Below, one piece after another: positions 6,258 to 51,828 of a stretch of DNA of 64,000 nucleotides. Both the position numbers and the translations under genes were made by a program. Source of the DNA: an uncultured Gammaproteobacteria bacterium (GTDB lineage Bacteria > Patescibacteriota > Patescibacteriia > UBA1558 > S5-K13); NCBI GenBank assembly GCA_964424195.1, contig CAYRHT010000001.1, positions 135,260 through 199,259 of the forward strand, in the 5' to 3' direction. How positions within the stretch are numbered: position 1 is the first letter of the stretch; each line of letters starts with the position of its first letter. Under the pieces are notes generated by a model. That model did not search any database, was not told the DNA's origin, and saw only the letters and a program-made list of their open reading frames with translations.

Positions 6258-6258
6258 T

Positions 6259-6756
6259 ATGGAAATTCTAGATGTTATTAATATAAAAGATGAGGTTATA
6301 GGAGAAGCTAGTAAGGATGAATGTCATCAAAGAGGATTAAGACATAGAAGTGTTTTTGTATTTATATTTGATAATAATGATAATTTAATTCTACAAAAAA
6401 GAAGTAGTAAAAAAAAGATAAGACCCAATAAAATAACAGCTTCCGCTTGTGGTCATGTAGTGAAAGGAGAGAATTATTTAAAAGCTGCTGAAAGAGAATT
6501 ATTAGAAGAGCTGGGCATTAAAACAAATCTAATAGAAGTTTTAAGAACAATCGGTCCTTATGATCAAGACAAAGAGAATATTGTTTTATATGAAGGTCAT
6601 TATGAAGGAGATTTAGATTTTAATAAAGAAGAAATAGCTGAAATTATCAAAATGAGTGTAAATGATATAAAGGATAAATTGGAAGAAAAAGTCTGGAATT
6701 TTGGTTCAAGTTTTAAAAAAGTATTTTTAGAATATATAAATAATAAAAATATATGA
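6259..6756 (+). CDS. Nudix hydrolase
   Basis: Nudix box GHVVKGENYLKAAERELLEELGI, matching Gx5Ex7REUxEExGU. Confidence 0.75.
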   Translation: MEILDVINIKDEVIGEASKDECHQRGLRHRSVFVFIFDNNDNLILQKRSSKKKIRPNKITASACGHVVKGENYLKAAERELLEELGIKTNLIEVLRTIGPYDQDKENIVLYEGHYEGDLDFNKEEIAEIIKMSVNDIKDKLEEKVWNFGSSFKKVFLEYINNKNI

Positions 6757-32676: not shown

Positions 32677-32762
32677 GCCGAAGTGGCGGAACTGGTAGAC
32701 GCGCACGACTCAAAATCGTGTGGACTTTGTCCGTGAGAGTTCAAGTCTCTCCTTCGGCACCA
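32677..32762 (+). tRNA. tRNA-Leu (anticodon CAA), class II with long variable arm
   Basis: GCCGAAGTGGCGGAA...CTCAAAA anticodon loop, long extra arm, T-arm GTTCAAGTC and 3' CCA encoded. Confidence 0.85.
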
Positions 32763-32802
32763 TTGACAAAGAGATGAATATTTATTATCATCTCTATATC
32801 GT

Positions 32803-32879
32803 CGCGGGGTGGAGCAGTCTGGCAGCTCGTCAGGCCCATAACCTGAAGGTCGTAGGTTCAAATCCTACCCCCGCTACCA
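32803..32879 (+). tRNA. tRNA-Met (anticodon CAU), likely initiator type
   Basis: CGCGGGGTGGAGCAG start resembles bacterial tRNA-fMet. C1:U72 mismatch at the acceptor end. Anticodon loop cCCATAA. CCA encoded. Confidence 0.75.
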
Positions 32880-32896
32880 ATTTTCTTTAATATCTA

Positions 32897-32973
32897 GGCA
32901 GGGTAGCTCAGTTGGTTAGAGCGCAGGACTCATAAGCCTGAGGTCGCGAGTTCAATTCTCGCCCCTGCTACCA
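32897..32973 (+). tRNA. tRNA with CAU anticodon (elongator Met or lysidine-modified Ile2)
   Basis: GGCAGGGTAGCTCAGTTGGTTAGAGC...CTCATAA anticodon loop, T-arm GTTCAATTC, CCA encoded. Confidence 0.75.
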
Positions 32974-35319: not shown

Positions 35320-35492
35320 TTTTCCTCCTATAGAAAATATTTTTTAATTATAATTAAAGTATATCATACTTTAATATAAATGTCAAGTAATTTATCCACT
35401 TTTAGAGTTGATTTATCCTCTAAAATAGAGTAAAATAAAGGTAACGAAAAGGTCGTTTTTTGTTTATTTTATACATTTATTTACATAAATAT

Positions 35493-38240
35493 ATGGCGTG
35501 GAAAGTAAAGAAAGTAAAAGCTAAAAAAGTTGTTAAAAAGGCTGTAAAAAAGCCAGTTAAAAAAGTAATTAAGAAGAAGGCTGTTCCTAAAAAGAAGAGT
35601 CTTGTTAAAGTTAAAAAAGTTGCTAAAAAGACTATTAAAAAAACAGTAAAGAAAGTTGTTAAGAAAGCTCCTGTTAAAAAAGTAGTTAAGAAGGTTATTT
35701 CTAAAAAACCAGAAGTTAAAAAAGAAGTAATTAAAGAAATTAAACCAGAAACTGAAGTAGTTGTTCCAGAAGTAGTAGAGGATAAAATTGAAATAGAAAG
35801 AACTCCGAATGGTAAAAATGTTTCTGACCAACCTTTAGTTGAAGAAATGAAAACTTCTTATTTAGATTATGCAATGAGTGTTATTGTCTCTAGAGCTTTA
35901 CCAGATGTCCGAGATGGTTTAAAACCAGTACATAGAAGAATTCTTTATGCCATGTGGAAACTCGGTTTAAGACCAAGTGCTAAGTTTAGAAAATCAGCTA
36001 CAGTAGTCGGTGAAGTTTTAGGTAAATATCATCCTCATGGAGATTCTTCAGTTTATGATGCTATGGTGCGTATGGCTCAAGAGTTTTCTCTAAGATATAT
36101 GTTAGTTAATGGTCAGGGTAACTTTGGTTCTATTGATGGAGATGGTGCAGCGGCTATGAGATATACTGAAGCTAAATTACAAAAGATCTCTGAAGAATTA
36201 TTATCTGATATTGAAAAAGATACAGTTGATTTTATGCCAAACTATGATGGTTCTCAAAAAGAACCAGTAGTTTTGCCAGCTCGAGTTCCAAACCTTCTTT
36301 TAAATGGTTCTATGGGTATTGCGGTTGGTATGGCTACAAATATTCCTCCTCATAATCTGAGAGAGGTAGTAGATGCTACTTGTCATTTGATTGATCATCC
36401 TCAAGCTGATGTAGATGCTTTGATGGAATTTGTAAAAGGCCCTGATTTCCCAACTGGTGGAATTGCCTATGATGTTAAAGAATTAAAGTCCGCTTATTCA
36501 ACTGGTAAGGGTGGAGTAGTAGTGCGAGCTAAGACTGAAATTACTGAAGGTAAAAAAGGATTTAAAATTATTGTTTCAGAAATTCCTTATCAAGTAAATA
36601 AATCTACATTATTAGAAAAGATAGCTAATTTAGTTAAAGACAAGAAAATTACTGGTGTTAGTGATCTAAGAGATGAATCTAATAAAGATGGTATTCGGAT
36701 TGTTATTTATTTAAAGGATTCAGCTTATCCAAAGAAGATTCTAAATAGTCTTTACAAACATACTCAACTCCAAGATAAGTTTCATTTTAATACAGTTGCT
36801 TTAATTGATGGTATTCAACCTAAATTATTATCCTTGAAAGTAATTTTAAGTGAGTTTATTAAACATCGACAAGAAGTTGTTACTCGAAGAGTAACTTTTG
36901 ATTTGAATAAAGCTAAAGACCGAGCTCATATTTTAGAGGGATTGGTAATGGCTTTAGAAAAAATTGATGCGATTATTAAAACCATTAAACAATCTAAGGA
37001 TAAAGAAATTGCTAAAGTTAATTTAATTAAGAAATTCAAGTTAACAGATAGACAGGCAGTAGCAATTTTAGAAATGAAGTTGCAACAATTAGCTAATTTA
37101 GAAAAATTAAAATTAGAAGAAGAGCTTAAAGAAAAGAAAAGAATTATTAGAGAATTAACAGCAATTTTGAAAGATCCTAAGAAAGTATTAAAGATTATTA
37201 AAGATGAGCTTCATGAAATTAAAGATAAATTTGGTGATGAAAGAAGAACTAGAATTATTAAAGGTAAAGTAGACCAAATTTCTAGTGAAGATTTAATTCC
37301 TAAAGAAGAGATTGTCGTGATTATGACTAAAGATGGATATATCAAACGAATGTCTACTGATAATTTCCATACTCAGAATAGAGGTGGAAAAGGAGTTATT
37401 GGTTCAGCTACTAAAGAAGAAGATGTTATCGAAAGATTATTTGCTTGTACAACTCATTCAGATTTATTGTTCTTTACTAGTCGAGGTAGAGTTTTCCAAT
37501 TGAAATCCTATGAAATTCCAGTAGCTACTCGCCAAGCTAAGGGACAGAATATTGTTAACTTCCTCCAATTAGCTCCAGAAGAAAAAGTAAACGCTATTTT
37601 ACCTAATGATGAAATTGCAGAGTTAAAGTATTTAATGTTCATTACTAATAATGGTTTAATTAAGAAAACAGAGATTGATAAATTTTCTAATGTTCGGAAA
37701 TCAGGATTAATTTCTATTAAATTAAAAGATGGTGACTTCTTGAAATGGGTTAAACCAACTACTGGTAAAGATGAAGTAGTTTTAGTAACTGCTAATGGCC
37801 AGTCTATTAGAACTAAAGAAAAGAATATCCGATCAATGGGAAGATCAGCTTCTGGTGTGAGAGGTATTAGATTAAAAGGTGAAGATCAGATTGTTGGTAT
37901 GTTAATTATCAATCCAAAACGAACGGATAAAGATAAGCTGTCCATAGTTATGGAAAATGGTTTTGGTAAGAAGACATTTTTGAAAGCTTATAAAGTTCAA
38001 GGACGAGGTGGTTCTGGAATTAAGACTGCTAAGGTTACTGCTAAAACTGGAAAGATTGTTTCCGCTTTCATAGCCGATGAAGAAAACAAAGATAAGGATA
38101 TTATCATTATTTCTACCGGAGCCCAAGTAATTCGATTAGCTTTAAAGAATATCCCTACAATTGGTAGAGCTACTCAAGGAGTAAGATTAATGAGATTTAA
38201 GAAAGCTGGAGACAAAGTAGCTTCAGTAACTATAGTTTAA
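35493..38240 (+). CDS. gyrA: DNA gyrase subunit A with a lysine-rich, histone-H1-like N-terminal extension
   Basis: GyrA core ([33 protein letters not shown], active-site region, GyrA-box NRGGKG) preceded by about 110 aa of KKxVKK repeats. Start at 35493 chosen over the ORF-track 35460. Confidence 0.88.
35496..35780 (+). repeat. Tandem coding repeats (AAAAAGTTGTTAAGAAAG-like) encoding KKVVKK-type lysine-rich repeats
   Basis: Low-complexity K/V/A repeats. The six-frame antisense ORF 35481..35831 is an artefact of this repeat. Confidence 0.7.
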
Positions 38241-38258
38241 ATATTAAAATATAAATAT

Positions 38259-39230
38259 ATGATGACTGTTAAAGAAATATATGATTTAGCAATAAAATTA
38301 GGTGTTCAGAATGATCTTCGGGGCTCTGATTTTGTTAATAAAAAACTCAAATATATTAATGAAAAATATAAAGAATTAAAACCAGAAGATAAAAAGGATT
38401 TTGATCAAGAAATTCTAAAAAATCCCTATGCTGATTCTAGAGTTTTAACTAAGGGCCTGAGTAAAAAAGTTAAGAGAGTTTTAGTTGGTATTGATATTGA
38501 AGTAGGAGAAGTTATGTTAGCTAATGAACTTTCCAAAAAGAAACCAATTGATTTAATTATTGCTCATCATCCTGAAGGAGTTGCCTTAGCTGGTTTAGGA
38601 AGTGTTATGGATCTCCAGATTGAATTACTTCATAAGTATGGTATTCCAATAAATATTGCCGAAGATATTACTAGAATGAGAATGTCAGAAGTTAATCGAG
38701 GAGTGAATCCAATTAATCATAATCGAGCTGTTGATACTGCTAACCTCTTAGGATTGGAAATGATGAATGTTCATACTCCAGCTGATAATTTAGTTGCTAC
38801 TTTTTTAGATAATTTAATTAAGAAGAATGAGAAGAAATTAGAAAGAGTAGAGGACCTATTAAAACTATTAAAAACAATTCCAGAATATAAAGAAGCTGCT
38901 AAAACTAAAGTTGGTCCTAAATTATTTGTTGGTAGTCCAGATAGATACTTAGGTAAGATTGCAGTTACAGAGATAACAGGTGGAACTAGTGGTTCTAAAG
39001 CCTATTACCAAAAGATAGCTGATGCTGGCATTGGAACTATTGTGGGAATGCATATGGGAGAAGAGCATCGTAAAGAAGCTGAAAAAGCTCATTTAAATAT
39101 TGTTATTGCTGGTCATATGTCTTCTGACTCTATTGGTATGAATTTATTCTTAGATGAATTAGAAAAGAAAGGTGTTGAAATTGTTCCTTGTTCTGGATTA
39201 ATTAGACATTCTCGAAACAAGAAAAAATAA
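38259..39230 (+). CDS. Nif3-like dinuclear metal center protein (DUF34 / GTP cyclohydrolase 1 type 2 homologue)
   Basis: IIAHHPEG matches the YbgI VIVHHG motif. C-terminal AGHMSSDSIGMN matches the AGHYxTE motif. Confidence 0.65.
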   Translation: MMTVKEIYDLAIKLGVQNDLRGSDFVNKKLKYINEKYKELKPEDKKDFDQEILKNPYADSRVLTKGLSKKVKRVLVGIDIEVGEVMLANELSKKKPIDLIIAHHPEGVALAGLGSVMDLQIELLHKYGIPINIAEDITRMRMSEVNRGVNPINHNRAVDTANLLGLEMMNVHTPADNLVATFLDNLIKKNEKKLERVEDLLKLLKTIPEYKEAAKTKVGPKLFVGSPDRYLGKIAVTEITGGTSGSKAYYQKIADAGIGTIVGMHMGEEHRKEAEKAHLNIVIAGHMSSDSIGMNLFLDELEKKGVEIVPCSGLIRHSRNKKK

Positions 39231-39251
39231 TATATTTTAGATATTAAAAAA

Positions 39252-39279
39252 GGCGAAGAGATATTTCTCTTCGCTTTTT
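39252..39279. terminator. Bidirectional intrinsic terminator between the nif3-like gene and acpP
   Basis: gcgaagag-atattt-ctcttcgc hairpin flanked by A- and T-runs. Confidence 0.8.
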
Positions 39280-39292
39280 GGTTGATTTAATT

Positions 39293-39526
39293 TTACTTAA
39301 CTTTTGTTTTTAGATATTCAATCGCTTTTTCAACTGTAGTGATCTTTCTAGCATCTTCATCAGGAATTTCAATATCAAATTCTTCTTCGAATTTCAGGAT
39401 GAGTTCTACTGTGTCTAAAGAATCTGCTGCTAGATCTTCAATAAAGTTAGAATTCATTTTTACTTTATCTTCATTAAAGCCTAATTCTTCAGCAACAATT
39501 TTGATTACTTTTTGAGTAATATCCAT
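39293..39526 (-). CDS. acpP: Acyl carrier protein
   Basis: 77 aa with DSLDTVEL phosphopantetheine-attachment motif. GGAGG RBS. Confidence 0.9.
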
Positions 39527-39624
39527 TTTTCCTCCTTATTTGATTTAACTACATCTTGCATTAAATAATCTAATAAGTCAAGAACTTTATTGAGTTATTT
39601 ATGATTTTAAGATAAGATTAATTT

Positions 39625-40653
39625 ATGATTGAAGAAGATACACAAATATTAACCACTAAAGAACGAGAAGAGGACAAAACCTTGGAAGTTGCTTTGCGTC
39701 CCAAAAGTTTTAAAGAATATATTGGTCAAAAGAATGTGAAGGATAATTTAAAGATTTCTATTCAAGCTGCTAAACAGAGAGAAGAACCAATTGAACATGT
39801 TTTACTTTATGGTCCTCCTGGACTTGGTAAAACTACTTTAGCATATATTATTGCTCGAGAAATGGGAGCTAATATTAAAATTACTTCTGGACCAGCAATT
39901 GAAAAAGTAGGAGACTTAGCAGCTATTTTAACAAATTTAGAAGATGGAGATATTCTATTCATTGATGAGATTCATCGTTTAAACCGAGTAATTGAAGAAG
40001 TTTTGTATCCAGCTATGGAAGAGCATGCTCTAGATATAGTTATTGGTAAAGGTCCTTCAGCTCGAACCTTAAGATTAGATTTATCTAAATTTACAATTAT
40101 TGGAGCCACTACTCGTTATGATTTATTATCTTCACCTTTTCGAGATAGATTTGGCTTAATTTTTAGATTAGATTATTATCAAGCTCAAGAAATATCTACG
40201 ATTATCAAGAATAATGCTCAGAAATTAAATATTGAAATTGATGATCAGGGAGCAAAATATATTGCAGAGCGTTCTCGTTTAACTCCTCGAATTGCTAATC
40301 GTTTGTTAAAAAGAGTAAGGGATTATGCTCAAGTGAAAGGTAATGGAAAAATTTCTGGAGATTATGCTTTAGAAGCTCTTTCGATGATTGATGTTGATAG
40401 TCATGGTTTAGACTATATTGATCGAAGAATACTAGAAACTATTGTGGATAAATTTAAAGGTGGTCCAGTTGGATTATCAACTTTGTCAGCAGCAGCTGGG
40501 GAAGAAATTGGAACCATTAGTGAAATCTATGAACCTTACTTAATGCGAATTGGATTTTTAGCACGAACTTCAAGAGGACGAGTTGTAACTGAAGAAGGAT
40601 ACAAACATATTGAAAGAGAATGTCCAGATGATATACAGAACAAATTATTATGA
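39625..40653 (+). CDS. ruvB: Holliday junction branch-migration helicase RuvB
   Basis: [12 protein letters not shown], Walker [12 protein letters not shown] and sensor motifs. 342 aa. Confidence 0.92.
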
Positions 40654-41183
40654 AGAAAATATTATTACATTCCTGTTGTGCACCATGTAGTGCTCACGTA
40701 ATTCAAGAGTTACAAAAAGAATATGAAGTAACTCTCTTTTATTTCAATCCTAATATTTTTCCAGAAGCGGAATATCAGAAAAGATTAGCAGAAGCTAAGA
40801 AATATTTGAAGAAAATTAATGTAAATTTGATAGAAGGAAAGTATGATTATCAAGCTTGGTTAGAAAAAGTTAAGGGCTATGAAAATGAACCAGAGAGAGG
40901 TAAAAGATGTCAGATTTGCTATCAAATGCGTTTAGCAGAAACAGCTTCTCAGGCGAAAGAATTAGGATGTTCAGTATTTTGTTCTACATTATCAATAAGT
41001 CCTCATAAGGACTCAGAAATGGTAAATAAGATAGGTTTAGAGCTCTCAGAAGAGCATAATATTAGCTATTTACCATCAGATTGGAAAAAACAAGAAGGTT
41101 TTAAAAAAGCTTGTGATATTTCTAAAGAAGAAGGGTTCTATAGACAAGAATATTGTGGCTGTGAATTTAGTATTAGGAAATAA
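40650..41183 (+). CDS. queH: Epoxyqueuosine reductase QueH (DUF208)
   Basis: [11 protein letters not shown]-terminal motif plus conserved Cys (CQICY, CGCEF). Confidence 0.8.
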
Positions 41184-41186
41184 AAT

Positions 41187-42227
41187 ATGAAATTAAGTGA
41201 ATTTAATTACAATTTACCTCAGAAGATGATTGCTCAAAAACCGGCTTCACCGCGGGATTCTTCTAAATTAATGTTAGTTAATTATCAGAGTGGAAAATTA
41301 AGTAATTATATTTTTAATGAACTCCCTGATTTTTTAGAAAAGGGTGATGTTTTAGTTTTTAATAATACTAAAGTTTTCCCAGCAAGGTTATTCGGTAAAA
41401 AAGAAACAGGTGGAAAGGTAGAAGTTTTTTTACTTACTCATCATCAGAAAAATGTTTGGGAAGTATTGATTGGTGGGAAGAGAATGAAAGTTGGGATGGA
41501 GATTATTTTTTCAAAAGATTTTAGATGTATTTTAAAACAAAAAACAGATTCCGGGGTTTGGAAAGTTAAATTTAGTTGTTCTGGAAAAAAGTTGGACAAA
41601 TTAATTGATCATTATGGAAATATTCCTATTCCTCCATATATTAAAAGTACAAGTAGTAAATCTAAATTGAAGAAAGAATATCAAACTGTTTATGCTCAGA
41701 AGAGAGGGTCAGTAGCAGCGCCAACAGCTGGCTTGCATTTTACTAATCGGATTTTGAATAAATTAAAGAAACAGGGAGTAGTTTTTAAATATGTGACCTT
41801 ACATGTTGGTCTAGGAACTTTTGAACCAGTGAAAGAAGAGAAAGTTGAAGACCATCAGATTCATTCTGAGTTTGGAATTCTAGATCAAGCTATTGCTAAA
41901 TATTTGAATAAAGCTCGGAAAAATGGTCGGAGAATTATTATTGTTGGTACTACTACTATGCGAGTTATTGAAGCTTTTGCTAATCAAAAAGGAATTTTAA
42001 AAGCAAATAAAAAATGGATAGATATATTTATCTATCCTGGTTACAAGTTTAAGTTTGCTAGTAATCTAATGACTAATTTTCATTTACCTAAATCAACTCT
42101 TTTAATGTTAATTTCAGCTTTAGCTGGAAAGTCTTTAGTTAAAAAAGCATATCAAAAAGCTATAAAAGATAAATACAGATTCTTTTCTTTTGGAGATGTT
42201 ATGTTGATTAATGATTTTAAAGAATGA
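41187..42227 (+). CDS. queA: S-adenosylmethionine:tRNA ribosyltransferase-isomerase
   Basis: LSEFNYNLPQKMIAQKPASPRDSSKLM is a QueA N-terminus. 346 aa. Confidence 0.9.
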   Translation: MKLSEFNYNLPQKMIAQKPASPRDSSKLMLVNYQSGKLSNYIFNELPDFLEKGDVLVFNNTKVFPARLFGKKETGGKVEVFLLTHHQKNVWEVLIGGKRMKVGMEIIFSKDFRCILKQKTDSGVWKVKFSCSGKKLDKLIDHYGNIPIPPYIKSTSSKSKLKKEYQTVYAQKRGSVAAPTAGLHFTNRILNKLKKQGVVFKYVTLHVGLGTFEPVKEEKVEDHQIHSEFGILDQAIAKYLNKARKNGRRIIIVGTTTMRVIEAFANQKGILKANKKWIDIFIYPGYKFKFASNLMTNFHLPKSTLLMLISALAGKSLVKKAYQKAIKDKYRFFSFGDVMLINDFKE

Positions 42228-42231
42228 AAAA

Positions 42232-42267
42232 AGGAAAGTTATTAGATGTTTATAACTTTCCTTTTTT
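42232..42267 (+). terminator. Intrinsic terminator after queA (11-bp stem)
   Basis: aggaaagttat-tagatgttt-ataactttcct hairpin followed by a T-run. Confidence 0.75.
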
Positions 42268-42507
42268 AATAATATATTCAAAAGCTAAATTTGTTTGATC
42301 GAACTCTTTAGGTATTTGAAAGGTTTTACCTTTCATTCCTTCGGGAGTATTAACTTCGAATATTATTAAAAGACTTTTGAGTTGTGATTCATCTGGAATA
42401 AAACTAAGAATTCTTTTCTTACGACTAGCAGATTTTTTAACAAATATCTGTGGTCCTGATTTACCGTCTAATTTAACCTCAACTATTTCTAATTTTATCT
42501 CTTCCAT
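42250..42507 (-). CDS. Small hypothetical protein; its last codons lie inside the queA terminator hairpin
   Basis: 85 aa with a strong RBS (AGGAGGGAAAATG). Confidence 0.45.
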   Translation of the reverse strand: MEEIKLEIVEVKLDGKSGPQIFVKKSASRKKRILSFIPDESQLKSLLIIFEVNTPEGMKGKTFQIPKEFDQTNLAFEYIIKKGKL

Positions 42508-42522
42508 TTTCCCTCCTATTTT

Positions 42523-43068
42523 CTAGTTTGTTTTTATATTTTCTAATAAGTTAATATATTCTTTTGGTAAATTGCAATCAAGTGCTCCTCGAATTAAAGT
42601 ATTTTTGTATCCAAGAGTTGTTATATCATCTCCAGACTGAGGTTGAATGTAAATATAGGCATCGTAGCTTTCTTGATCACTAATTTTAACATTAATTGTT
42701 TGACGATTATAACTATTAACTTCTCGGCCTTCTTGATAACCTTCAATTCTATCTAAATCATAAATATCATCCATATCTAATAAGTATAGACAACCCCAAA
42801 GTATTTGATCTTCAATTTTTTCAATATTACCAACTTTTCTGGGAAAAGTTAAGTGATAATTTTCTAGGTAAGCTGGGCCAATAACTTTAATATTTGAGTT
42901 ATTAGTTCGAGAACGCATTTTATCAATATCCATATTACTACCGTAAGCAAAATAATAATATTGGTTAGTAGTTATTTCTGATTCAGAAGTTTTTTTCTGA
43001 AAGAATAAAAAGAATATTATCAGAATGGAAAAAGAGATGATGATTACTAAACCAATTTTTCTTTTCAT
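42523..43068 (-). CDS. Gamma-glutamyl cyclotransferase-like (AIG2/GGCT family) protein with N-terminal TM/signal
   Basis: YYFAYGSNMD motif characteristic of the GGCT/AIG2 fold. N-terminal hydrophobic helix. Confidence 0.6.
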   Translation of the reverse strand: MKRKIGLVIIISFSILIIFFLFFQKKTSESEITTNQYYYFAYGSNMDIDKMRSRTNNSNIKVIGPAYLENYHLTFPRKVGNIEKIEDQILWGCLYLLDMDDIYDLDRIEGYQEGREVNSYNRQTINVKISDQESYDAYIYIQPQSGDDITTLGYKNTLIRGALDCNLPKEYINLLENIKTN

Positions 43069-43077
43069 TGTTTTTGT

Positions 43078-44133
43078 TTAATTACTAAATCTAAAAACCA
43101 TTGTATCTCCATCTTGAGTGATGTATTCTTTACCCTCTAATCTAATTAATCCTTTTTCTTTAGCCTGGACTTCTCCACCAGCATCAAGTAAGTCTTTCCA
43201 ATTTATAACTTCAGCTCGAATAAAACCGTCTTCAAAATCTGTATGTATTTTTCCAGCTGATTGAGGAGCAGTAGATCCTTTTTTAATTGTCCAGGCTCGG
43301 GATTCTTTAGGTCCACTAGTTAAGAAAGTTATTAAATCTAAAGCTTGATATGATTCTTTAATTAACTTATTCAAACCAGTATCTTCAATTCCTAATTCTT
43401 TCATATACTCTTCTAAATCTTTTCCTTCTAGTTCTGCTAATTCTGATTCTAGCTTAGCACAAATAGTTAAACCATCTTCAGCTTTATCACTCAATTCATT
43501 TTCATCAACATTGTAGGCATAAAGCATTGGTTTCAGAGTGAGTAGACTATAGCTTTTAATTAACTTTCTTTCATCAGTATTTAAATCTGTTTCAATAGCT
43601 AATTTATTGTTTTCTAAAGTGTCTTTAATTTTATCTAAAACTATTTTTAGTTTATCAATCTCTTTGTCATGTGGTCCTTTAAGTTGAGAATTTACTTTAT
43701 CCAATACTTTGTTAATAGTTTCTAAATCAGACATGATTAATTCTAAATTAATAACTTCTTGATCACTGCTCGGATTTATCTCTCCATGAACATGAGTAAC
43801 ATTAGGATCATTAAATCTTCGCACAACTTGAAGAATAGCATCTACCTCTCGGATATTGGATAGAAACTTGTTTCCTAATCCTTCTCCTTTGGAAGCTCCT
43901 TTTACTAAACCAGCAATATCAACAAACTCTATTGTAGTGTAAATAGTTTTTTCAGAATTATGTATTTTAGATAAAGAGTCTAATCTTTCGTCAGGTACAG
44001 TAACAACACCTACATTTGGTTCAATGGTACAAAAAGGGTAATTAGAAGCATCTACTTGTTTTTTAGTTAAGGCTTTAAATAGTGTTGATTTACCAACATT
44101 TGGTAAGCCTACTATTCCAATTGAGAATGACAT
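43078..44133 (-). CDS. ychF: Ribosome-binding ATPase YchF (Obg family)
   Basis: G1 motif [12 protein letters not shown]-domain, TGS-like C-terminus. 351 aa. Confidence 0.9.
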
Positions 44134-44190
44134 GATTAATTAATATTTTATTAGTTTTAACTACCATAAATTTAACTAATATTTAGGTTT

Positions 44191-44832
44191 TTGTCCACAT
44201 TTTTAAAAAATAAAATTCTATGTTATAGTGTATTTACTAAGAAATTAAAAAACATTATGTCTAAAACATTATTTAATAATATTATAAAGGATTTAAAACT
44301 TTATTACCAAGAAAGAGGAGTTTTACATAAAATATCATCTGAAGGGCTTACTAAAAGCAAACAAGCAATCTTTACTGCTCATGATGGTGAAATTGCAAAA
44401 GCGGAGAAGATACTTAAAGAAGTTAGGGGATTATTAACAGATTTGAATAAAAAGTATAATCATAGTAATCGATTACAATTTGAAGGATCCTATCGAGCTT
44501 GTGTTGAAGAATTTTTAGAAGCTAGTTTTTTTGTAGCTACTCTAAAGGGTAAAGAATTAAAATTAGATCCTGATTTTCAATTTGGGCCAGAAGAATATAT
44601 TGGTGGACTTTGTGATTTAACTGGTGAATTAGTTAGACAAGCAGTTTTATTAGGAAGTAAAAAGAATTTACCTAAGATTAAAAAATATACTAAGATGACT
44701 AAAGAAGTTGTTGGATTTATGATGCAATTATATATCTCTGGAAAATCAAGACAAAAATTTGATGAAGCTAAGAGAAATTTAAAGAGATTAGAACAAATTG
44801 TTTATGAAATTAATTTAAAAAATATTAAATAA
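44191..44832 (+). CDS. Translin-family protein; the true start may be the Met at 44257
   Basis: EEYIGGLCDLTGELVRQAV and SRQKFDEAKRNLKRLEQIVYEINL align with translin core EYLGGISDLTGELMRLAI and LRKRYDGLKYDVKKVEEVVYDLSI. Confidence 0.6.
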   Translation: MSTFLKNKILCYSVFTKKLKNIMSKTLFNNIIKDLKLYYQERGVLHKISSEGLTKSKQAIFTAHDGEIAKAEKILKEVRGLLTDLNKKYNHSNRLQFEGSYRACVEEFLEASFFVATLKGKELKLDPDFQFGPEEYIGGLCDLTGELVRQAVLLGSKKNLPKIKKYTKMTKEVVGFMMQLYISGKSRQKFDEAKRNLKRLEQIVYEINLKNIK

Positions 44833-44855
44833 CAAAAAGAAAGACAAACAAAAAT

Positions 44856-44984
44856 ATGCATCGATTACCTAAAAGTGTTAGAAAATATATTGCCCATCAG
44901 AAATCTTTAATTCGGAGAGATTTTTCTAATCAGACAGAAGTGGAAGACAAGATCAGAAATTTATATAGTAAATTTGGACTTTAG
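44856..44984 (+). CDS. Small basic peptide A (42 aa), paralogue of peptide B
   Basis: MHRLPKSVRKYIAHQKSLIRRDFSNQTEVEDKIRNLYSKFGL. Shares LPK, KYI and the C-terminal LYxKF(G/S) with peptide B. Weak RBS. Terminator hairpin follows. Confidence 0.4.
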   Translation: MHRLPKSVRKYIAHQKSLIRRDFSNQTEVEDKIRNLYSKFGL

Positions 44985-44994
44985 AGTTATAATT

Positions 44995-45034
44995 ATCCCT
45001 AAATTATTTTTTGTTTAGATTTAGGGATTTTTTG
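44995..45034 (+). terminator. Intrinsic terminator after peptide A
   Basis: atccctaa-(18-nt loop)-ttagggat followed by TTTTTT. A TTGACA -35-like box follows at 45036. Confidence 0.6.
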
Positions 45035-45099
45035 ATTGACAAAGAATAATAGAAGGTGTAAGTTTTAGAAAAGAGGATAAAATGATTAAGGGAGGAAAG

Positions 45100-45258
45100 A
45101 TGCGTAGTAGTTGTAGATTACCTAAGAATATTCAAGTTAGACTCTCCAGAGGCGCTCATAAATATATTAGGAAAGAGAAAGCTAAAATAAATAGATCTCT
45201 TTTAAGTGCCGAGAAGAAAAAAGACAAAATGAAAGAGTTATATTTAAAATTTTCATAA
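45100..45258 (+). CDS. Small basic peptide B (52 aa), paralogue of peptide A
   Basis: MRSSCRLPKNIQVRLSRGAHKYIRKEKAKINRSLLSAEKKKDKMKELYLKFS. Has its own TTGACA...TAAGTT promoter-like boxes and an AAGGGAGGAAAGATG RBS. Confidence 0.5.
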   Translation: MRSSCRLPKNIQVRLSRGAHKYIRKEKAKINRSLLSAEKKKDKMKELYLKFS

Positions 45259-45262
45259 ATAT

Positions 45263-45294
45263 AAGTTCCCCGAGCATTACTCTGGGAACTTTTT
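45263..45294 (+). terminator. Intrinsic terminator after peptide B
   Basis: gttcccc-gagcattactct-ggggaac hairpin followed by a T-run. Confidence 0.75.
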
Positions 45295-45319
45295 TATTTA
45301 TCCCCATTGTCAGTTAGTT

Positions 45320-46735
45320 GTGAGATATGATATTATTTTAATATCATTTATGATTAATAAATTATTTTCAAATGGTGATGATTTGACTAATGGTTCTCGT
45401 CTCCAAGAGTTCATGGCCAAGCCTAAGAAAGCATTATGGACACTAGCAGGTCCTATAATTTTTAGTTTAATGTTTCAAGCTTTGTATCTAATTATAGATA
45501 CTTTTTTTGTAATTAAAATTGGATATGAGGCTGTAGCAGCTATTACTTTTGCCATGCCTGTTTTTTTAATTATTGTAGCTACAGTAACTGGTTTTGGGAT
45601 TGGAGTTACTACTTTAATTTCCAAATATATTGGTGCTCAAGAAAAAGAAAAAGCTTCTAAGATTGCCCATCATGCTGTAATTGCTGGTTTAATATTAGGA
45701 GTATTTATTAGTTTATTTGGTTATATTATTACTCCAGCTATTTTTAAATTTTTAGGAGCTACTGGAATTACTTTATTTTTAGCTATTCAATATTTTAGAG
45801 TAATTTTTATTGGTAGTCTTTTTTTAGTTTCTTCAGTAATTTTTAGATCTATTTTAGCTGGTGAAGGTAATCATATGGCTCCAGCTACTATTTTAGTTAT
45901 TGCTGTGGTTATAAATTTAATTTTAGATCCTATTTTTATAATTGTTTTAGATTGGGGAATCCAAGGAGCTGCTTGGGCAACTCTTTGTGGTTTTTTATTT
46001 TCTTTTATTACTTATGCTTATTTTTTATTCATCAAAAATTCATCTTTTTTTAATTTCAATTTTAAAGAATTTAATTTTAATGCTAGTTTAATTAAAAAGA
46101 TATTTAAGATTGGAGCTCCAATTGCAGTATCTCAAATGTTATTATCTAGTGGAGCTATGATAGTTAATTTTTTTGTTTCTCGTTTTGGACAAGAAATGGT
46201 AGCTGGTTTTGGTTTAGCGTCGAGGTTAGAATCTTTGTATATAATTATATTAATTGGTTTAAGTTCAGCTCTGTTAACTCTATTAGGAATGTATTTAGGT
46301 GCTAAGCGTTATGATTTGATAAAATTAATTGTTCATTATTCAGCTAGAGTCAGTTTAGTTATTAGTTTATTTATTGGAATTCTTCTTTATTTTTTCTCGG
46401 GAATGTTCTTATCGATATTTACTAACAATATAATGTTAATTAGTATTGGAATTCTTTATTTTAAGATTACAGTTTATTCCTATCCAGCTATTGCTATAAT
46501 ATATGTGATAGCTAAATTACTCCAAGTAGCAGGTCATCCTATTAAAGATGTTTTGATTAATCTTTTTAGACTAGTAATATTCTTTTTACCTCTGGCTTAT
46601 CTCTTAGCTTATGGATTGGATTGGGGAATTAGAGGAATCTGGTATGCTCGTTTATTTGCCACATTACTAGCTCTGATAACAGCAGTCATTTTCTACAAGA
46701 AAGTTTGTTTTCAAGTTAAAGAAGTTTGTAAATAA
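45320..46735 (+). CDS. MATE family efflux transporter
   Basis: 12 predicted TM helices. N-terminal LAGPIIFSLMFQALYLIIDTFFV...GYEAVAAITFAMPVF pattern typical of NorM/MATE. Confidence 0.75.
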   Translation: MRYDIILISFMINKLFSNGDDLTNGSRLQEFMAKPKKALWTLAGPIIFSLMFQALYLIIDTFFVIKIGYEAVAAITFAMPVFLIIVATVTGFGIGVTTLISKYIGAQEKEKASKIAHHAVIAGLILGVFISLFGYIITPAIFKFLGATGITLFLAIQYFRVIFIGSLFLVSSVIFRSILAGEGNHMAPATILVIAVVINLILDPIFIIVLDWGIQGAAWATLCGFLFSFITYAYFLFIKNSSFFNFNFKEFNFNASLIKKIFKIGAPIAVSQMLLSSGAMIVNFFVSRFGQEMVAGFGLASRLESLYIIILIGLSSALLTLLGMYLGAKRYDLIKLIVHYSARVSLVISLFIGILLYFFSGMFLSIFTNNIMLISIGILYFKITVYSYPAIAIIYVIAKLLQVAGHPIKDVLINLFRLVIFFLPLAYLLAYGLDWGIRGIWYARLFATLLALITAVIFYKKVCFQVKEVCK

Positions 46736-46761
46736 GATTATATAGTATTTAAATAATTTTT

Positions 46762-47802
46762 ATGATTTTATCTTCTTACAATAATTTATATTTATTTATT
46801 AAAAGACATTTTAATAATTTGTTACCTTTTTTAAATTTTGTTAAGCTTTTTAATGGAGTTACTGCTTTGTTAGAGATGGCTATGAGGAAGGAAAGGTGTC
46901 ATTCATTTCCTTTGATATATAGAATAGATCCTTGTACTCAATGTAATTTAAAGTGTCCACCATGTACATCTTGGCAAACAAATACTAAAGAAAAAAGGAT
47001 GATGGAATACAGTGATTACAAAGTGATAATTGATAAAGTAAAAAAATACGCTTTGAGAGCTTCATTATATGACATGGGAGAACCCTTGTTGAATAAGGAT
47101 ATCTATAAAATGATTAAATATGCTAGTAATAATAATATAAGTACATTAATTAGTACTAATTTTAATTTATTTAATAGGAATCAAATTAAGGATTTATTTG
47201 AAAGTCGCTTAACTGTTTTAGAGCCTTGTTTGGATAGTTTTACTCAAAAAAATTATGAAATATATAGAAGAGGTGGGAATGTTCAATTGGTTAAAAATAA
47301 CATAAAAAGTGTTATGGAATATAAATTAAAGAATAAATTTAAATATCCAATTGTTGATGTACAGATTATTAATTTTAAATATATAAAAAATGAAATTCCT
47401 TTAATTAATAAATTTTTAAAAAGAAATAAAGTAGATAAAATTACTTATCGGAAGGATATTTATGATTTTAATACAGACATAATTACAGAGGTTAAAAGTA
47501 ATAGAAAAACATGTTTTTGGTTGTATTTAGGTATGATGATTAGACCAGATGGAAATGTTTATCCTTGTTGTGGTAAAGATTTCAATCGTTTTTCTTATGG
47601 TAATATATTGAGTCAAAATTTAGAGGATATTTGGAATAATGAATATTATCGTTTTTCTAGAAAGTTATTTAAGAGGGGTAAGAACTTATCTTACAATAAA
47701 AAGATGAAAAATATACCTTGTTTAACTTGTAATAATTTTACAAAATTAAGAATAATGAAAAAAGACTGTAATAAAAATCCTCTACTGAGAGTAGAGGATT
47801 AA
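46762..47802 (+). CDS. Radical SAM protein with C-terminal SPASM/twitch-like Cys-rich domain; the true start is probably the Met at 46876/46882
   Basis: Cx3Cx2C motif CNLKCPPC. GEPLL SAM-binding motif. C-terminal CFWLYLGMMIRPDGNVYPCCGKDF...CLTCNNF auxiliary-cluster-type cysteines. Confidence 0.7.
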   Translation: MILSSYNNLYLFIKRHFNNLLPFLNFVKLFNGVTALLEMAMRKERCHSFPLIYRIDPCTQCNLKCPPCTSWQTNTKEKRMMEYSDYKVIIDKVKKYALRASLYDMGEPLLNKDIYKMIKYASNNNISTLISTNFNLFNRNQIKDLFESRLTVLEPCLDSFTQKNYEIYRRGGNVQLVKNNIKSVMEYKLKNKFKYPIVDVQIINFKYIKNEIPLINKFLKRNKVDKITYRKDIYDFNTDIITEVKSNRKTCFWLYLGMMIRPDGNVYPCCGKDFNRFSYGNILSQNLEDIWNNEYYRFSRKLFKRGKNLSYNKKMKNIPCLTCNNFTKLRIMKKDCNKNPLLRVED

Positions 47803-47818
47803 AAGGAAGTAAGTTTTT

Positions 47819-49117
47819 TTAATAATCTAAGTCTGGATAAAGAGGAAATTTATCACACAGGTCTTTGACTTGTTTTTTTATTTTCTCTAAAACTGTATTA
47901 TCTTTGTTATTCTTTAAAGCCTCTACAATCATCTTAGCTATTTCTTTCATTTCTTCTTCTTTCATTCCTCTAGAAGTCAAAGCTGGAGTGCCAATTCTAA
48001 TTCCAGATGGATCAAATGGAGATCGAGGATCAAAAGGAATAGTATTCTTATTCACCGTAATCATAGCCTTTTCTAGAGCAGTTTCAGCTTCGGAACCACT
48101 AATATTAAAAGGAGTAACATCAATAAGCATTAGATGATTATCAGTTCCACCAGTGATTACTTTTAATCCAGCATTCATTAATTCTTCAGCTAATACTTTA
48201 GCATTTTTTACAATCTGTTCAGCATAAACTTTAAATTCTGGTTGTTGAACTTCGAATAAAGCTTGAGCTATTCCAGCTGTAGTTTGATTATGAGGACCAC
48301 CTTGTAATCCTGGGAATACAGCTCGATCAATATATGATGGAATATTATGTTTTGATTCTTTCCAACCAATAACTGGTTCTGGTTTCTTAACTGGATTAGA
48401 TGGATCACCATCACACATAATCATTGCTCCTCGAGGTCCTCTTAAAGTCTTGTGAGTAGTAGTAGTAATTACATCAGCATGTCCAGCTGGAGAAGGATGA
48501 ACACCACCAGCAATTAAACCAGCAATATGAGCAACATCAGCAATTAAAAATGCATTTTCAGCATGAACAATTTCTGCTAATTTTTTAAAATCAATTATTC
48601 GAGAATAAGCAGTTGCTCCAACAAAGACTAGTTTTGGTTTTTCTTTTTTAACTAAAGCTTCAATAGCATCATAATCTAGGAAACCATCTTTATCAGTAGT
48701 ATATTGAATTGATTCATAGAATCTTCCACTAAAATTTACTTTCCAACCATGAGTTAGATGTCCACCATACAAAAGATTAAATCCCATTACTTTATCTCCT
48801 GGTTCACAAAGAGCAAAATATACAGCTTGGTTAGCTGGAGATCCAGAATATGGTTGAAGATTAGCATGGTCAACTTTAAAGATATTTTTAGCATAATCTC
48901 GACCCATATTTTCAATTTCATCTACAAATTCATTGCCACCATAATATCTTTTTCCGGGATAGCCTTCAGAATATTTATTAGTTAAAATTGAACCCATAGC
49001 TTTAAGGACATTTTCGGAAACATAATTCTCTGAAGCAATCATTTCTAAACCATCTTGTTGGCGTCCAAGTTCTTGGTTAATTAATCCAAATAAGTCATTG
49101 TCTTTTTTGTTTATCAT
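47819..49117 (-). CDS. glyA: Serine hydroxymethyltransferase
   Basis: LEMIASENYVS, PLP-lysine motif TTTTHKTLRGPRG. 432 aa. Confidence 0.93.
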   Translation of the reverse strand: MINKKDNDLFGLINQELGRQQDGLEMIASENYVSENVLKAMGSILTNKYSEGYPGKRYYGGNEFVDEIENMGRDYAKNIFKVDHANLQPYSGSPANQAVYFALCEPGDKVMGFNLLYGGHLTHGWKVNFSGRFYESIQYTTDKDGFLDYDAIEALVKKEKPKLVFVGATAYSRIIDFKKLAEIVHAENAFLIADVAHIAGLIAGGVHPSPAGHADVITTTTHKTLRGPRGAMIMCDGDPSNPVKKPEPVIGWKESKHNIPSYIDRAVFPGLQGGPHNQTTAGIAQALFEVQQPEFKVYAEQIVKNAKVLAEELMNAGLKVITGGTDNHLMLIDVTPFNISGSEAETALEKAMITVNKNTIPFDPRSPFDPSGIRIGTPALTSRGMKEEEMKEIAKMIVEALKNNKDNTVLEKIKKQVKDLCDKFPLYPDLDY

Positions 49118-49233
49118 AGATTTAATTTATTTTTAAGTATTAATATTATATCATTGTTTAAAGATTTTTCTATATTGACATTATAAGAATATTATTTTAA
49201 GATATAGAAAATAAAGAAGAAATAGGAGGAAAG

Positions 49234-49506
49234 ATGTCAGTAATGGACTGGTTAGTTATTGTATTAGGAGTGTTATTTTGGATTGGAATACCAGTAGCTA
49301 TAGAAATTTATTCCAGAAAAGAAGAAAAAAAAGAGATCTTAAAGAAAAAGAAAACCTCGAATGATAAAAACTTTGGACATCTACATGCTGAACTTTTTAA
49401 AGAAGATGGTAATATGAAAATATTTACACCAGAAGAAAGAAAATCTCTTCTTACTTTGAGACCTGAGTTGAAAGATCCACCACCTTTTATTAAGACTTAT
49501 CACTAG
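49234..49506 (+). CDS. Small membrane protein, hypothetical
   Basis: One N-terminal TM helix, basic tail. AGGAGGAAAGATG RBS. Confidence 0.5.
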   Translation: MSVMDWLVIVLGVLFWIGIPVAIEIYSRKEEKKEILKKKKTSNDKNFGHLHAELFKEDGNMKIFTPEERKSLLTLRPELKDPPPFIKTYH

Positions 49507-49523
49507 CTAATACAAAATCAAAA

Positions 49524-49551
49524 ACTGTTCGAAAATTTCGAGCAGTTTTTT
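49524..49551. terminator. Bidirectional intrinsic terminator
   Basis: ctgttcgaaa-a-tttcgagcag hairpin with one G.U pair, flanked by A- and T-runs, between convergent genes. Confidence 0.7.
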
Positions 49552-49572
49552 ATTTGTTTTGAATTTAATAAT

Positions 49573-51165
49573 TTATATCTTCTTAGTCATATAAGTTCCT
49601 TCAAGTTTATACCCTAACTTTCGATAATATTCTCGAACTCCAATACCAGAAATTACAGCAATTTTAGAATATTTATTTTTTTTGGATAATTTTTCAGCTT
49701 CAATCATTAGTTTTTTACCAAAGCCCATATGTTGAGCACTTGATTTTGATTTAGACTTTCCATGAGCTACTAATTTACCATAGGCATGAATTTCTCTAAC
49801 AATGGAAGAATTATTTAATTCAGAGATAAAGTTATCTTGAGAATTGTTGAAACGCAATCTTAAAAAAGCATATAGTTTATTTCGTTCTTTGTTTTCATAA
49901 GAGATAAAATATTCTATGCCATCGGAGGCTTTATATTTTTCTATAAATAATTTAGCATCAGATAATTTAATTTCTTGATCTTTTATTTCCCGACAACGAA
50001 TACATTTACATTGTATATTTTTCTTCTTTAATTCTAATTGAACACTTTGTCTTAAATTAGTAATTCTATTTCCAGCCACAATTGATTCAGAAGGAATATC
50101 CCTAATTAACCTATTAATCCGTACATAATAGGGGATAGTTTTAATCTTTATTTTAATTAATAAGTCTAAGAGTTGTTTTTTAGTATAAGGGGTATACTTT
50201 TTATCTTTAAATAGCTTATAAAGTGTTTGAGCTTCTTTAGTAACTACACAGGGATAAATTTTAATTTGATCTGGCTGGTAATCAGGAGTGAAAAAAACTT
50301 TTTCAAACATTTTAAAGTCCTTGGCTGGAGTAGAAAATGGTAAGTCAGGCATTAAATGATAATCTACTTTAATTCCAGCTTGTTTACATAATTTAGTAGC
50401 TTCAATAATTTCTTTTTGAGTATGACCTCTTTTAATTTTTTGGAGAATTTGATCATCAGTATGTTGAACGCCAAGTTGGATCCGAGTACAACCCTGTTCT
50501 CGCATAGCAATAATCTCTTTTTTATTTACTAAATCGGGTCGAGTCTCTAAAGTTTCTCCAATAATCCTATATTTAGTTTTTTCATTTTTTTTTAATTCTT
50601 TTTCCAAGGTAGTTTTTACCTTTTCTTTGTTCTGGGGATAGTCATTAGCAGCTTGAAAACATTTAGCAATAAAATTATCTTGATAACTACGAGTATAGGC
50701 GTTCCAAGAACCTCCTAAGACCAAGAGTTCTATCTTGTCAACTACATGACCATTAGTTTCCAAAGCTTTAATTCGGTATTGAACTTGTTGGTAAGGATTA
50801 AAATTTAAACCTTTAGCTCGTTGAGCTGCTGGTTCATTGGATAAATAACTAACTGGCATATTTTTTTCATGAGGACAATAGATACATTTTCCAGGGCATT
50901 GATATGGTTTAGTTAAAACAGTTACTGGAGTTACACCAGAGATTGTTCTAGTAGCCCGGGCAATAGTTAAATTTTCAAAGTTTAGGTTTTTTTTAATTAA
51001 GCCTTTTTGTAAAAGTTTGCGATAGGCTTTAATTAAAACAGAATTCATTACTGGCTCTATTTTATTTTTTCCACAGAGTTTCTTTTTTGCTGATTCAAAA
51101 GTATCCCTATTTTTGTAGGGTTTTTTAATTAGTTCTTGAACAATTTTTTGGTATAATGAATTCAT
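49573..51165 (-). CDS. elp3: Elp3-like protein (radical SAM + C-terminal GNAT acetyltransferase); the ORF track extends to 51210 but the start is likely the Met at 51165
   Basis: Radical SAM Cys cluster CPGKCIYCP. C-terminal GNAT segment HMGFGKKLMIEAEKLSK...GVREYYRKLGY. Architecture matches the Elp3 family. Confidence 0.75.
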   Translation of the reverse strand: MNSLYQKIVQELIKKPYKNRDTFESAKKKLCGKNKIEPVMNSVLIKAYRKLLQKGLIKKNLNFENLTIARATRTISGVTPVTVLTKPYQCPGKCIYCPHEKNMPVSYLSNEPAAQRAKGLNFNPYQQVQYRIKALETNGHVVDKIELLVLGGSWNAYTRSYQDNFIAKCFQAANDYPQNKEKVKTTLEKELKKNEKTKYRIIGETLETRPDLVNKKEIIAMREQGCTRIQLGVQHTDDQILQKIKRGHTQKEIIEATKLCKQAGIKVDYHLMPDLPFSTPAKDFKMFEKVFFTPDYQPDQIKIYPCVVTKEAQTLYKLFKDKKYTPYTKKQLLDLLIKIKIKTIPYYVRINRLIRDIPSESIVAGNRITNLRQSVQLELKKKNIQCKCIRCREIKDQEIKLSDAKLFIEKYKASDGIEYFISYENKERNKLYAFLRLRFNNSQDNFISELNNSSIVREIHAYGKLVAHGKSKSKSSAQHMGFGKKLMIEAEKLSKKNKYSKIAVISGIGVREYYRKLGYKLEGTYMTKKI

Positions 51166-51828
51166 ATGAATAATGATATTAAAAAAGCTTATGATGTAGT
51201 GGCTGAACATTTTAGTTTAACTCGGAAAAGAGCTCTACCATCACAATTAATAGATTTTAAACAATATTTGGCTAATGGTCAACAGGTTTTAGATTTAGGT
51301 TGTGGTTCTGGAAGAATTATTCGGATTTTAAAGGATTTTGAAATAGATTGTGTTTTTACAGATATTTCCGAGAAGCAAGTTAATTATGCCAGAAAAGAGG
51401 AGCGAGGTAAAATAAGGAGTGCTGAATTTATTGCTGAGGACATGATAAATTCTTCTTTTCCAGATAATAAATTTGATGTCATTTTTTGTGTAGCTACTTT
51501 TCATCATTTAAAAACTAGAAAAGCTAGAATTAAATTTTTGAAGAATGTTTATTCTTGGTTAAAGCCCGAAGGATATTTTTTAATGACTAATTGGAATTTA
51601 ATGCAAAAGCGTTATTTTAAATACATTTTTAATTTTAAAAAGAGAGTTTGGAATGATTTTTCTATTCCTTACAAAGATAATCAGGGGAAGAATTTAGCTA
51701 ATCGTTATTATCATAGTTTTACTCATCAGGAATTAGAAAAACTTCTATTAAAAGTTGGTTTTAAGATAGAAAAATTAGAATTATCTGAAAATGGGAACGA
51801 CCGAGTAAGTGTTTGTCGGAAAAGATAA
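51166..51828 (+). CDS. Class I SAM-dependent methyltransferase, Trm9/ALKBH8-MTase-like
   Basis: Motif I VLDLGCGSGRII. ATFHHLKTRKARIKFLKNVYSWLKPEGYFLMTNWN resembles Trm9 AVIHHF...LKPGG..L.YVWA. TATAAT at 51153..51158 lies 7 nt upstream of the ATG, so the mRNA may be leaderless. Confidence 0.65.
   Translation: MNNDIKKAYDVVAEHFSLTRKRALPSQLIDFKQYLANGQQVLDLGCGSGRIIRILKDFEIDCVFTDISEKQVNYARKEERGKIRSAEFIAEDMINSSFPDNKFDVIFCVATFHHLKTRKARIKFLKNVYSWLKPEGYFLMTNWNLMQKRYFKYIFNFKKRVWNDFSIPYKDNQGKNLANRYYHSFTHQELEKLLLKVGFKIEKLELSENGNDRVSVCRKR

Follow-up and report, generated by a model that had tools for sequence, protein, structure and literature searches.

Genes A and B are two short, adjacent genes in a 64,000-nucleotide stretch of contig CAYRHT010000001.1 (assembly GCA_964424195.1, positions 135,260 to 199,259; this whole stretch is referred to below as the window), and it is nearly certain that both are real members of an undescribed small-protein family of the Patescibacteria, or Candidate Phyla Radiation (CPR). 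The family gene is anchored beside RtcB and archease in most of the genomes compared, and beside a TRAX-like nuclease in the lineage of the window, and from these placements we infer an accessory role for the protein at RNA ends. Taken as a whole, the reading that family members would be RNA-binding accessories to RNA-end-processing enzymes seems to us about evenly poised between right and wrong. The placement of the gene after RtcB and archease, or after a TRAX-like nuclease, provides a testable lead on RNA repair or splicing in the CPR.

Coding evidence for genes A and B

The two genes and the signals that accompany them are as follows.

44856-44984, plus strand: gene A, open reading frame for a basic protein of 42 amino acids, MHRLPKSVRKYIAHQKSLIRRDFSNQTEVEDKIRNLYSKFGL
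44995-45034, plus strand: intrinsic terminator after A, an 11-bp stem (44995-45005 / 45018-45028) followed by a T-run
45036-45064, plus strand: sigma-70-like promoter of B, with -35 box TTGACA (45036-41), a 17-nt spacer and -10 box TAAGTT (45059-64)
45090-45095, plus strand: Shine-Dalgarno sequence of B, GGGAGG, 4 nt upstream of the B ATG
45100-45258, plus strand: gene B, open reading frame for a 52-amino-acid paralogue of A
45263-45301, plus strand: intrinsic terminator after B, an interrupted 11-bp stem (45263-45291) followed by TTTTTTATTT

An earlier note made from the letters of the window (the original prediction) had described A and B as duplicates that share motifs around an indel. The homology is borne out by profile scores given below and by alignment, in which residues 3-41 of A and 14-52 of B are collinear and ungapped with 36% identity over 39 residues (BLASTP, E 2e-7). 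The indel is not: B has no internal indel relative to A and carries instead an N-terminal extension with a second RLPK. In the window the two RLPK-type motifs of B stand eight residues apart, RLPKNIQV and then RLSRGAHK (45115-45162), and B orthologues have one; the DNA of the two segments matches at 10 of 24 bases (by eye), so that an old internal duplication cannot be shown.

Comparison with related loci, numbered L003 onward, shows that A and B are real protein-coding genes under purifying selection. For A there are 11 clusters of orthologues, 72-86% identical to it and all 42-50 amino acids long. Among seven loci its pairwise ratio of nonsynonymous to synonymous substitution rates (dN/dS) lies between 0.04 and 0.32, and the variable columns are distributed 10/10/24 over the three codon positions, an excess at the third. 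For B, the 38-codon core compared among the window, L004 and L007 gives dN/dS values of 0.15-0.22, and the B frame is the only one that is open in all three of these genomes. Conservation and dN/dS in relatives had been suggested beforehand as the check on both genes, and the frames are kept under purifying selection.

The distribution of the two genes points to a duplication older than the split of several Komeilibacteria-like genomes, with B later deleted in some of them. A word-indexed search with B as query returned no match other than B itself, and its orthologues were found by reading the related loci, where they stand between A and the MATE transporter gene in L004 (47 amino acids), L007 (57) and L021/L022 (49). 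L003 and L005 are without B, and the degraded remnant of the B promoter that is still there in L003 implies that B was lost from this locus by deletion. In L023, a distant relative whose small protein is about 52% identical, a translin gene is followed by a single copy, with neither B nor MATE. The sole species representative with an A homologue in the genome collection is a Candidatus Komeilibacteria metagenome-assembled genome (L004), which places the window in a Patescibacteria (CPR) genome of this kind.

Three further features of these loci were observed. In L003 (5001-5150) the stop codon of A is gone (TAG to GAA) and the frame reads 7 residues into the terminator stem. The MATE gene of the same locus (5286-6685) is split into pieces of 72 and 281 amino acids and is probably a pseudogene. 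In L004 the A terminator and the B promoter are separated by a GC-rich insert of about 230 nt (~4090-4310) that is missing from the window, has no Rfam match and may be a small mobile or structured element.

The coding evidence bears directly on the notion that A and B are not genes at all, being chance open reading frames over a regulatory or non-coding RNA such as an attenuator before the MATE gene. There are two terminator hairpins in the region, and a sub-threshold Rfam match to the PyrR site (37.5 bits, where the gathering score is 54) spans 45195-45298. The alignment gaps out the protein-binding loop, however, and its score comes from AU-rich sequence and the terminator; by dN/dS the substitutions follow a protein-like pattern, and the family of proteins is large. 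Apart from three tRNAs elsewhere, nothing from Rfam attains its gathering score in the window. The PyrR-site match is an artefact, and the dN/dS values together with the family evidence refute the non-coding reading, to which we assign practically no probability.

The expression signals indicate that A and B are separate transcription units, A behind the TRAX-like gene and B with a promoter, Shine-Dalgarno sequence and terminator of its own. The TRAX-like gene and A are 23 nt apart with no hairpin between them and so are probably co-transcribed. The stem-loop and T-run that had been noted after each gene hold up in RNA folding. The A hairpin (44995-45028) has a folding free energy (dG) of -13.7 kcal/mol with z -3.6, and its position is kept in L003, L004, L005, L007 and L021, with stem substitutions that preserve pairing; the B hairpin (45263-45291) has dG -17 and z -6.1, and its structure is kept in L007 and L021, although the inner stems differ. 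Both hairpins escaped a simple consensus terminator scanner, owing to its rules on loop size and GC. The TTGACA and TAAGTT boxes and the strong ribosome-binding site claimed for B are likewise present in the sequence and conserved in related genomes, the promoter boxes being kept in L004, L007 and L021/L022, and B orthologues are preceded by an equivalent GAGGAGG or GGGAGG. From these boxes transcription of B would begin about 7 nt past 45064. The program-listed open reading frame that contains B is 45082-45258, and an in-frame ATG at 45082 would give a protein of 58 amino acids; the 52-amino-acid start at ATG 45100 is favoured by the GGGAGG at 45090-95 and by the equivalent Shine-Dalgarno-to-ATG layout in the orthologues.

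A small-protein family of the Patescibacteria

The sequence searches indicate that the family to which A and B belong is very widespread in the Patescibacteria and so far undescribed, and that no described family includes the two proteins. When 1.84 billion representative proteins were searched with a profile made from A, its orthologues and B, 511 proteins (representatives at 50% identity) matched at E <= 1e-3. The best 150 of these 511 matches are all 42-111 amino acids long, and in this search of the whole library the representative of B's cluster has E 1.6e-15. An alignment of 93 sequences, used as query in a second search, brought up at least 2,949 clusters at 90% identity, every one annotated 'hypothetical protein', and Patescibacteria is the taxon given for these clusters wherever the source names any.

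Members share a strongly basic core of about 40 residues, (K/R)LPKSxRK(Y/F)IRxEKARIRRE-x5-EQExxIxELYxKF, to which many add a lysine-rich tail; the family consensus reads KRLPKSxRKYIRxEKARIRREVLDxKEQExLIxELYxKF and then continues into the variable tail. K16, I19 and Y37 are invariant in 121 sequences. The median length is 59 amino acids, the median isoelectric point (pI) 10.4 and the minimum 9.74; the tails are 23% Lys, and Cys is nearly absent (family mean 0.17 per protein; none in A, one in B). A and B have the marks of membership, namely the core motif LPKSxRK(Y/F)I..xK..I(R/N)R ... I..LY.KF, small size and a pI above 9.7, and a hidden Markov model built from canonical members only, with A and B left out, scores A at 45.7 bits, B at 37.5 bits and their orthologues at 29-53 bits.

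Searches with A, B and consensus-like members gave no match in Pfam, NCBIfam, PHROGs or PADLOC. A Pfam scan of each of the 93 members brought out no consistent family; at most eight members matched any one, all weakly, and none of the families so matched is a bacterial ribosomal-protein model. In a profile search of the PDB the best match was non-ribosomal, at E 0.26. Nothing relevant came up in the literature, whether on RtcB, archease, translin or DUF763 in Patescibacteria or CPR or on the motif. The family is thus definable, and a model could be built for it and a name chosen. Proteins identical to A and B already figure as hypothetical proteins in public gene sets (NCBI, JGI, ENA and Logan), where the contigs reach 0.77-0.95 Mb. 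The earlier remark that the two genes fall below the gene-calling cutoff and are easy to miss is therefore right only in part, in that one JGI annotation of identical sequence omits B.

Patescibacteria have tiny genomes, which are rich in introns, inteins and homing endonucleases. Because a protein of about 40 residues has been retained in thousands of lineages despite such small genomes, it likely does something basic.

One family member was seen outside cellular genomes. GenBank phages gave no family match, and one of 2.9 million viral contigs, IMGVR_UViG_3300034378_000133 (L025), carries a canonical member, MRKKLPKSIRKHIRKEKARIRRELFFLSDQREAIKKLYEKIATRYKL, at 4992-5135 on the plus strand. 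This gene lies directly 3' of an HNH endonuclease and a terminase large subunit (PHROG 5989, E 4.6e-24) and is followed by an RNase H gene, and the contig is presumably that of a phage of a Patescibacterium that acquired the small gene.

Predicted structure and chemistry

Structure prediction gives the core the form of an alpha-helical hairpin. The AlphaFold2 model of A, made with the family alignment, places helices at residues 6-22 and 26-40 with a mean confidence (pLDDT) of 91.2; that of B has about 16 disordered N-terminal residues followed by a hairpin with helices at 17-32 and 37-51 (pLDDT 81.5). One face of helix 1 probably packs through L4, V8, I12 and I19 on I33, L36, Y37 and F40 of helix 2. 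On a helical wheel calculated from the family consensus V8, I12 and I19 lie on this face, and the near-invariant Lys and Arg residues K6, R9, K10, R13, K16, R20 and R21 would form a basic ridge on the remaining ~200 degrees of helix 1.

The two paralogues depart from the family in different ways. A has pI 10.4 and a net charge of +6, with 14 of its 42 residues charged (K+R+D+E), and relative to the family has lost basic residues at R13 (to A) and R18 (to L, I, T or S). B has pI 10.7, with 21 of 52 residues charged, and has kept the YIRKxKAKI core and the basic residues and gained charge, to a net +13.

Tandem cationic helical peptides of about 45 amino acids beside a transporter also recall toxins or leaderless cationic bacteriocins, whether type I toxins or peptides of the enterocin L50A/B kind, exported by the MATE protein. 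The likeness to enterocin L50A/L50B is one of arrangement, these being tandem, paralogous, unmodified cationic helical peptides of about 40-50 amino acids near a transporter. Leaderless two-peptide bacteriocins are hydrophobic or amphipathic, membrane-active and of sporadic distribution, whereas A and B belong to a hydrophilic, core-like conserved family with no exporter linkage elsewhere. Their grand averages of hydropathy (GRAVY) are -0.92 and -1.0, and neither has a hydrophobic or Trp-rich segment; they are too hydrophilic for membrane activity. The family is conserved in the manner of core genes over thousands of sequence clusters, beside RtcB and without exporters, and evolves under slow purifying selection unlike typical bacteriocin turnover. 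PADLOC gave no match. Hydropathy and distribution lead us to reject the toxin reading, one of those offered at the outset, as very improbable.

Gene neighbourhoods of the family

In seven distinct genomes with canonical members (L009, L011, L012, L013, L015, L017 and L018) the small gene is single-copy and sits in a recurring gene order: Mur-ligase-like, archease, RtcB, small protein, NIF3-like, DUF763. RtcB is immediately upstream of the small gene in five of the seven and no more than 3 kb upstream in all of them. Archease is upstream in six. In five the NIF3-like gene begins within the 3' end of the small gene, and DUF763 is downstream in five. RtcB genes with inteins were seen in two of these Patescibacteria loci (L011 1995-4937 and L017 2090-4831, with L018 1196-2050 as the third locus, the set comprising two intein cases and one in which a LAGLIDADG open reading frame stands between archease and RtcB).

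The translin-family linkage is distributed the other way, present in all Komeilibacteria-like loci and absent from the seven canonical genomes. The order of translin and then small protein is kept in L003-L008 and L021-L023, including the divergent L023. The 64 kb of the window contain no RtcB, archease or DUF763, so that A and B do not lie in the canonical neighbourhood, although NIF3-like and ELP3 genes are nearby; the NIF3-like gene is 5.6 kb upstream of the pair, behind gyrA, and the TRAX-like gene occupies the upstream slot. No third copy of the small gene is present in the window. The Komeilibacteria-like lineage thus has the small gene in a broadly similar chromosomal area with a TRAX-like gene in the place of RtcB, and the different neighbourhood of A and B is a context variant and not a mismatch of sequence.

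A proposed role at RNA ends

In the mechanism that we propose, the Lys/Arg ridge, together with the lysine-rich tail where one is present, would bind the phosphate backbone of RNA, and the small protein, as an accessory or a chaperone, would assist enzymes whose substrates are RNA ends. In most CPR genomes it would partner the archease-RtcB ligase module (together with NIF3-like and DUF763), and in the Komeilibacteria-like lineage the TRAX/C3PO-like nuclease in the same slot. After the duplication A and B would have diverged, A toward a less basic and B toward a more basic protein, which suggests a division of labour or dosage control via the separate promoters. The original prediction had listed nucleic-acid-binding partners of the adjacent translin-like nuclease among its options; this is plausible but too narrow, since adjacency to translin is lineage-specific and adjacency to RtcB and archease is found in seven genomes.

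A more specific proposal is that the family is a CPR-wide third component of the archease-RtcB RNA repair or splicing machinery, an RNA-end-presenting or tRNA-binding cofactor that in Komeilibacteria was re-partnered with a TRAX/C3PO-like nuclease and duplicated. We put this forward tentatively and regard it as doubtful. If it were true, one small RNA-binding module would serve both cutting and sealing enzymes.

The neighbourhoods call two known systems to mind. Archease (PF01951) is likewise a small accessory gene in the RtcB neighbourhood of many genomes, and canonical members stand one or two genes from it. Archease is, however, an acidic alpha/beta protein of about 140 amino acids, PF01951 is matched by no member of the small family, and the latter has a basic two-helix core of about 40 amino acids. 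The resemblance to the archaeal and eukaryotic C3PO (translin/TRAX) nuclease lies in the gene upstream of A, which is TRAX-like, its best PDB relative being A. fulgidus TRAX; the association with the small protein is limited to the Komeilibacteria-like lineage. The C3PO complexes known to us are built from translin and TRAX subunits alone, and we know of no basic partner of about 40 amino acids described for them.

Several points weigh against an RNA-binding accessory role. The suggested functional link to RNA-end enzymes comes solely from gene neighbourhood, and DNA, ribosomes or acidic proteins are equally conceivable ligands of the basic surface. The seven genomes that supply the context are the best-scoring near-consensus matches on long contigs and may over-represent one CPR subgroup. 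RtcB may be encoded elsewhere in the genome of the window, of which only 64 kb are in view, and gene A is without an obvious Shine-Dalgarno site.

The main rival holds that the family binds polyanions in general as a housekeeping function, either as an unrecognised CPR-specific ribosomal or ribosome-associated protein or as a chaperone of nucleoid or RNA. It would then have no particular tie to RtcB or to the TRAX-like nuclease, and the neighbourhood would reflect conserved synteny. The small size, strong basicity and helical nature of members fit this, as do K-rich tails like those of small ribosomal or H1-like proteins. Conservation is very wide, with one copy per locus examined, B has a strong promoter, Shine-Dalgarno sequence and terminator as is often the case for highly expressed genes, and the phage contig has one copy, as phages sometimes carry small ribosomal proteins. 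Against this, the small gene is in no ribosomal-protein operon at any locus examined, and the family differs from bS20, bS21 and Sra in matching neither ribosomal Pfam models nor PDB ribosome chains. The gene also repeatedly adjoins RNA-end-processing enzymes, in two different arrangements. We consider a housekeeping role of this sort possible, though not probable.

Alternatively, A and B might contact protein and not nucleic acid, as a subunit, adaptor or inhibitor of the neighbouring enzyme (a TRAX-like octamer here, RtcB or the NIF3-like protein elsewhere). Helical hairpins often dock on partner proteins, A follows the TRAX-like gene by 23 nt with no terminator between, and the overlap of the small gene with the NIF3-like start elsewhere suggests translational coupling. 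The neighbours nevertheless vary by lineage while the core motif is nearly invariant, for which a common ligand such as RNA is the easier explanation, and transcription of B appears to be independent of any partner gene. A role in protein contact is in our estimate improbable.

Genes surrounding the pair

The window is about 27% GC. Its other genes near the pair, and those noted farther away, are the following.

32677-32973: cluster of tRNA-Leu(CAA) and two tRNA-Met(CAT)
35460-38240, plus strand: gyrA
38259-39230, plus strand: NIF3-like
39625-40653, plus strand: ruvB
40650-41183, plus strand: queH
41187-42227, plus strand: queA
42250-42507, minus strand: small open reading frame, 85 amino acids, a gene in the public annotation of identical sequence; no Pfam match
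42523-43068, minus strand: GGACT-like
43078-44133, minus strand: ychF
44257-44832, plus strand: translin/TRAX-like, Pfam Translin E 6e-17; ATG at 44257, program-listed open reading frame from TTG 44191
~45350-46735, plus strand: MATE transporter
46762-47802, plus strand: radical SAM/SPASM
47819-49117, minus strand: SHMT
49234-49506, plus strand: small open reading frame, 90 amino acids, a gene in the public annotation of identical sequence; no Pfam match
49573-51210, minus strand: ELP3, TIGR01211, 532 bits

Among solved structures the TRAX-like protein is closest to Archaeoglobus fulgidus TRAX (3zc1, E 5e-5). The nearest NCBIfam models (PRK14562, below cutoff) name it a 'haloacid dehalogenase superfamily protein', at odds with Pfam Translin and with the PDB match to TRAX.

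The local order of peptide, peptide, MATE and radical SAM/SPASM speaks for another of the readings offered at the outset, that A and B are precursors of ribosomally synthesized and post-translationally modified peptides (RiPPs); the radical SAM/SPASM enzyme would mature them and the MATE protein export them. The candidate maturase is not co-inherited with the peptides. Its gene is specific to the genome of the window: it is absent from L003, L004 and L007, where MATE directly adjoins SHMT, and all three have A, L004 and L007 also B. Neither the L023 homologue nor any canonical member has MATE beside it, and the seven canonical genomes have no maturase neighbours. The best NCBIfam score of the radical SAM/SPASM protein is 82 bits against a cutoff of 380, and it is below every NCBIfam cutoff. 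The architecture of a precursor is missing as well: A and B are nearly free of Cys, are conserved uniformly over their whole length with no split into leader and core, and have a confidently predicted hairpin. On these comparative-genomic grounds the RiPP reading is rejected as exceedingly improbable, and the RiPP-like layout (peptide, peptide, exporter, radical SAM) is coincidental. The radical SAM/SPASM gene has the lowest GC of the neighbourhood, about 0.23, and gives weak viperin-like PADLOC matches (E 1e-9).

The region 38259-51210 is rich in genes of tRNA modification and RNA metabolism, with NIF3-like, queH, queA, TRAX-like and ELP3 genes, and this could be a coincidence or a loose functional island.

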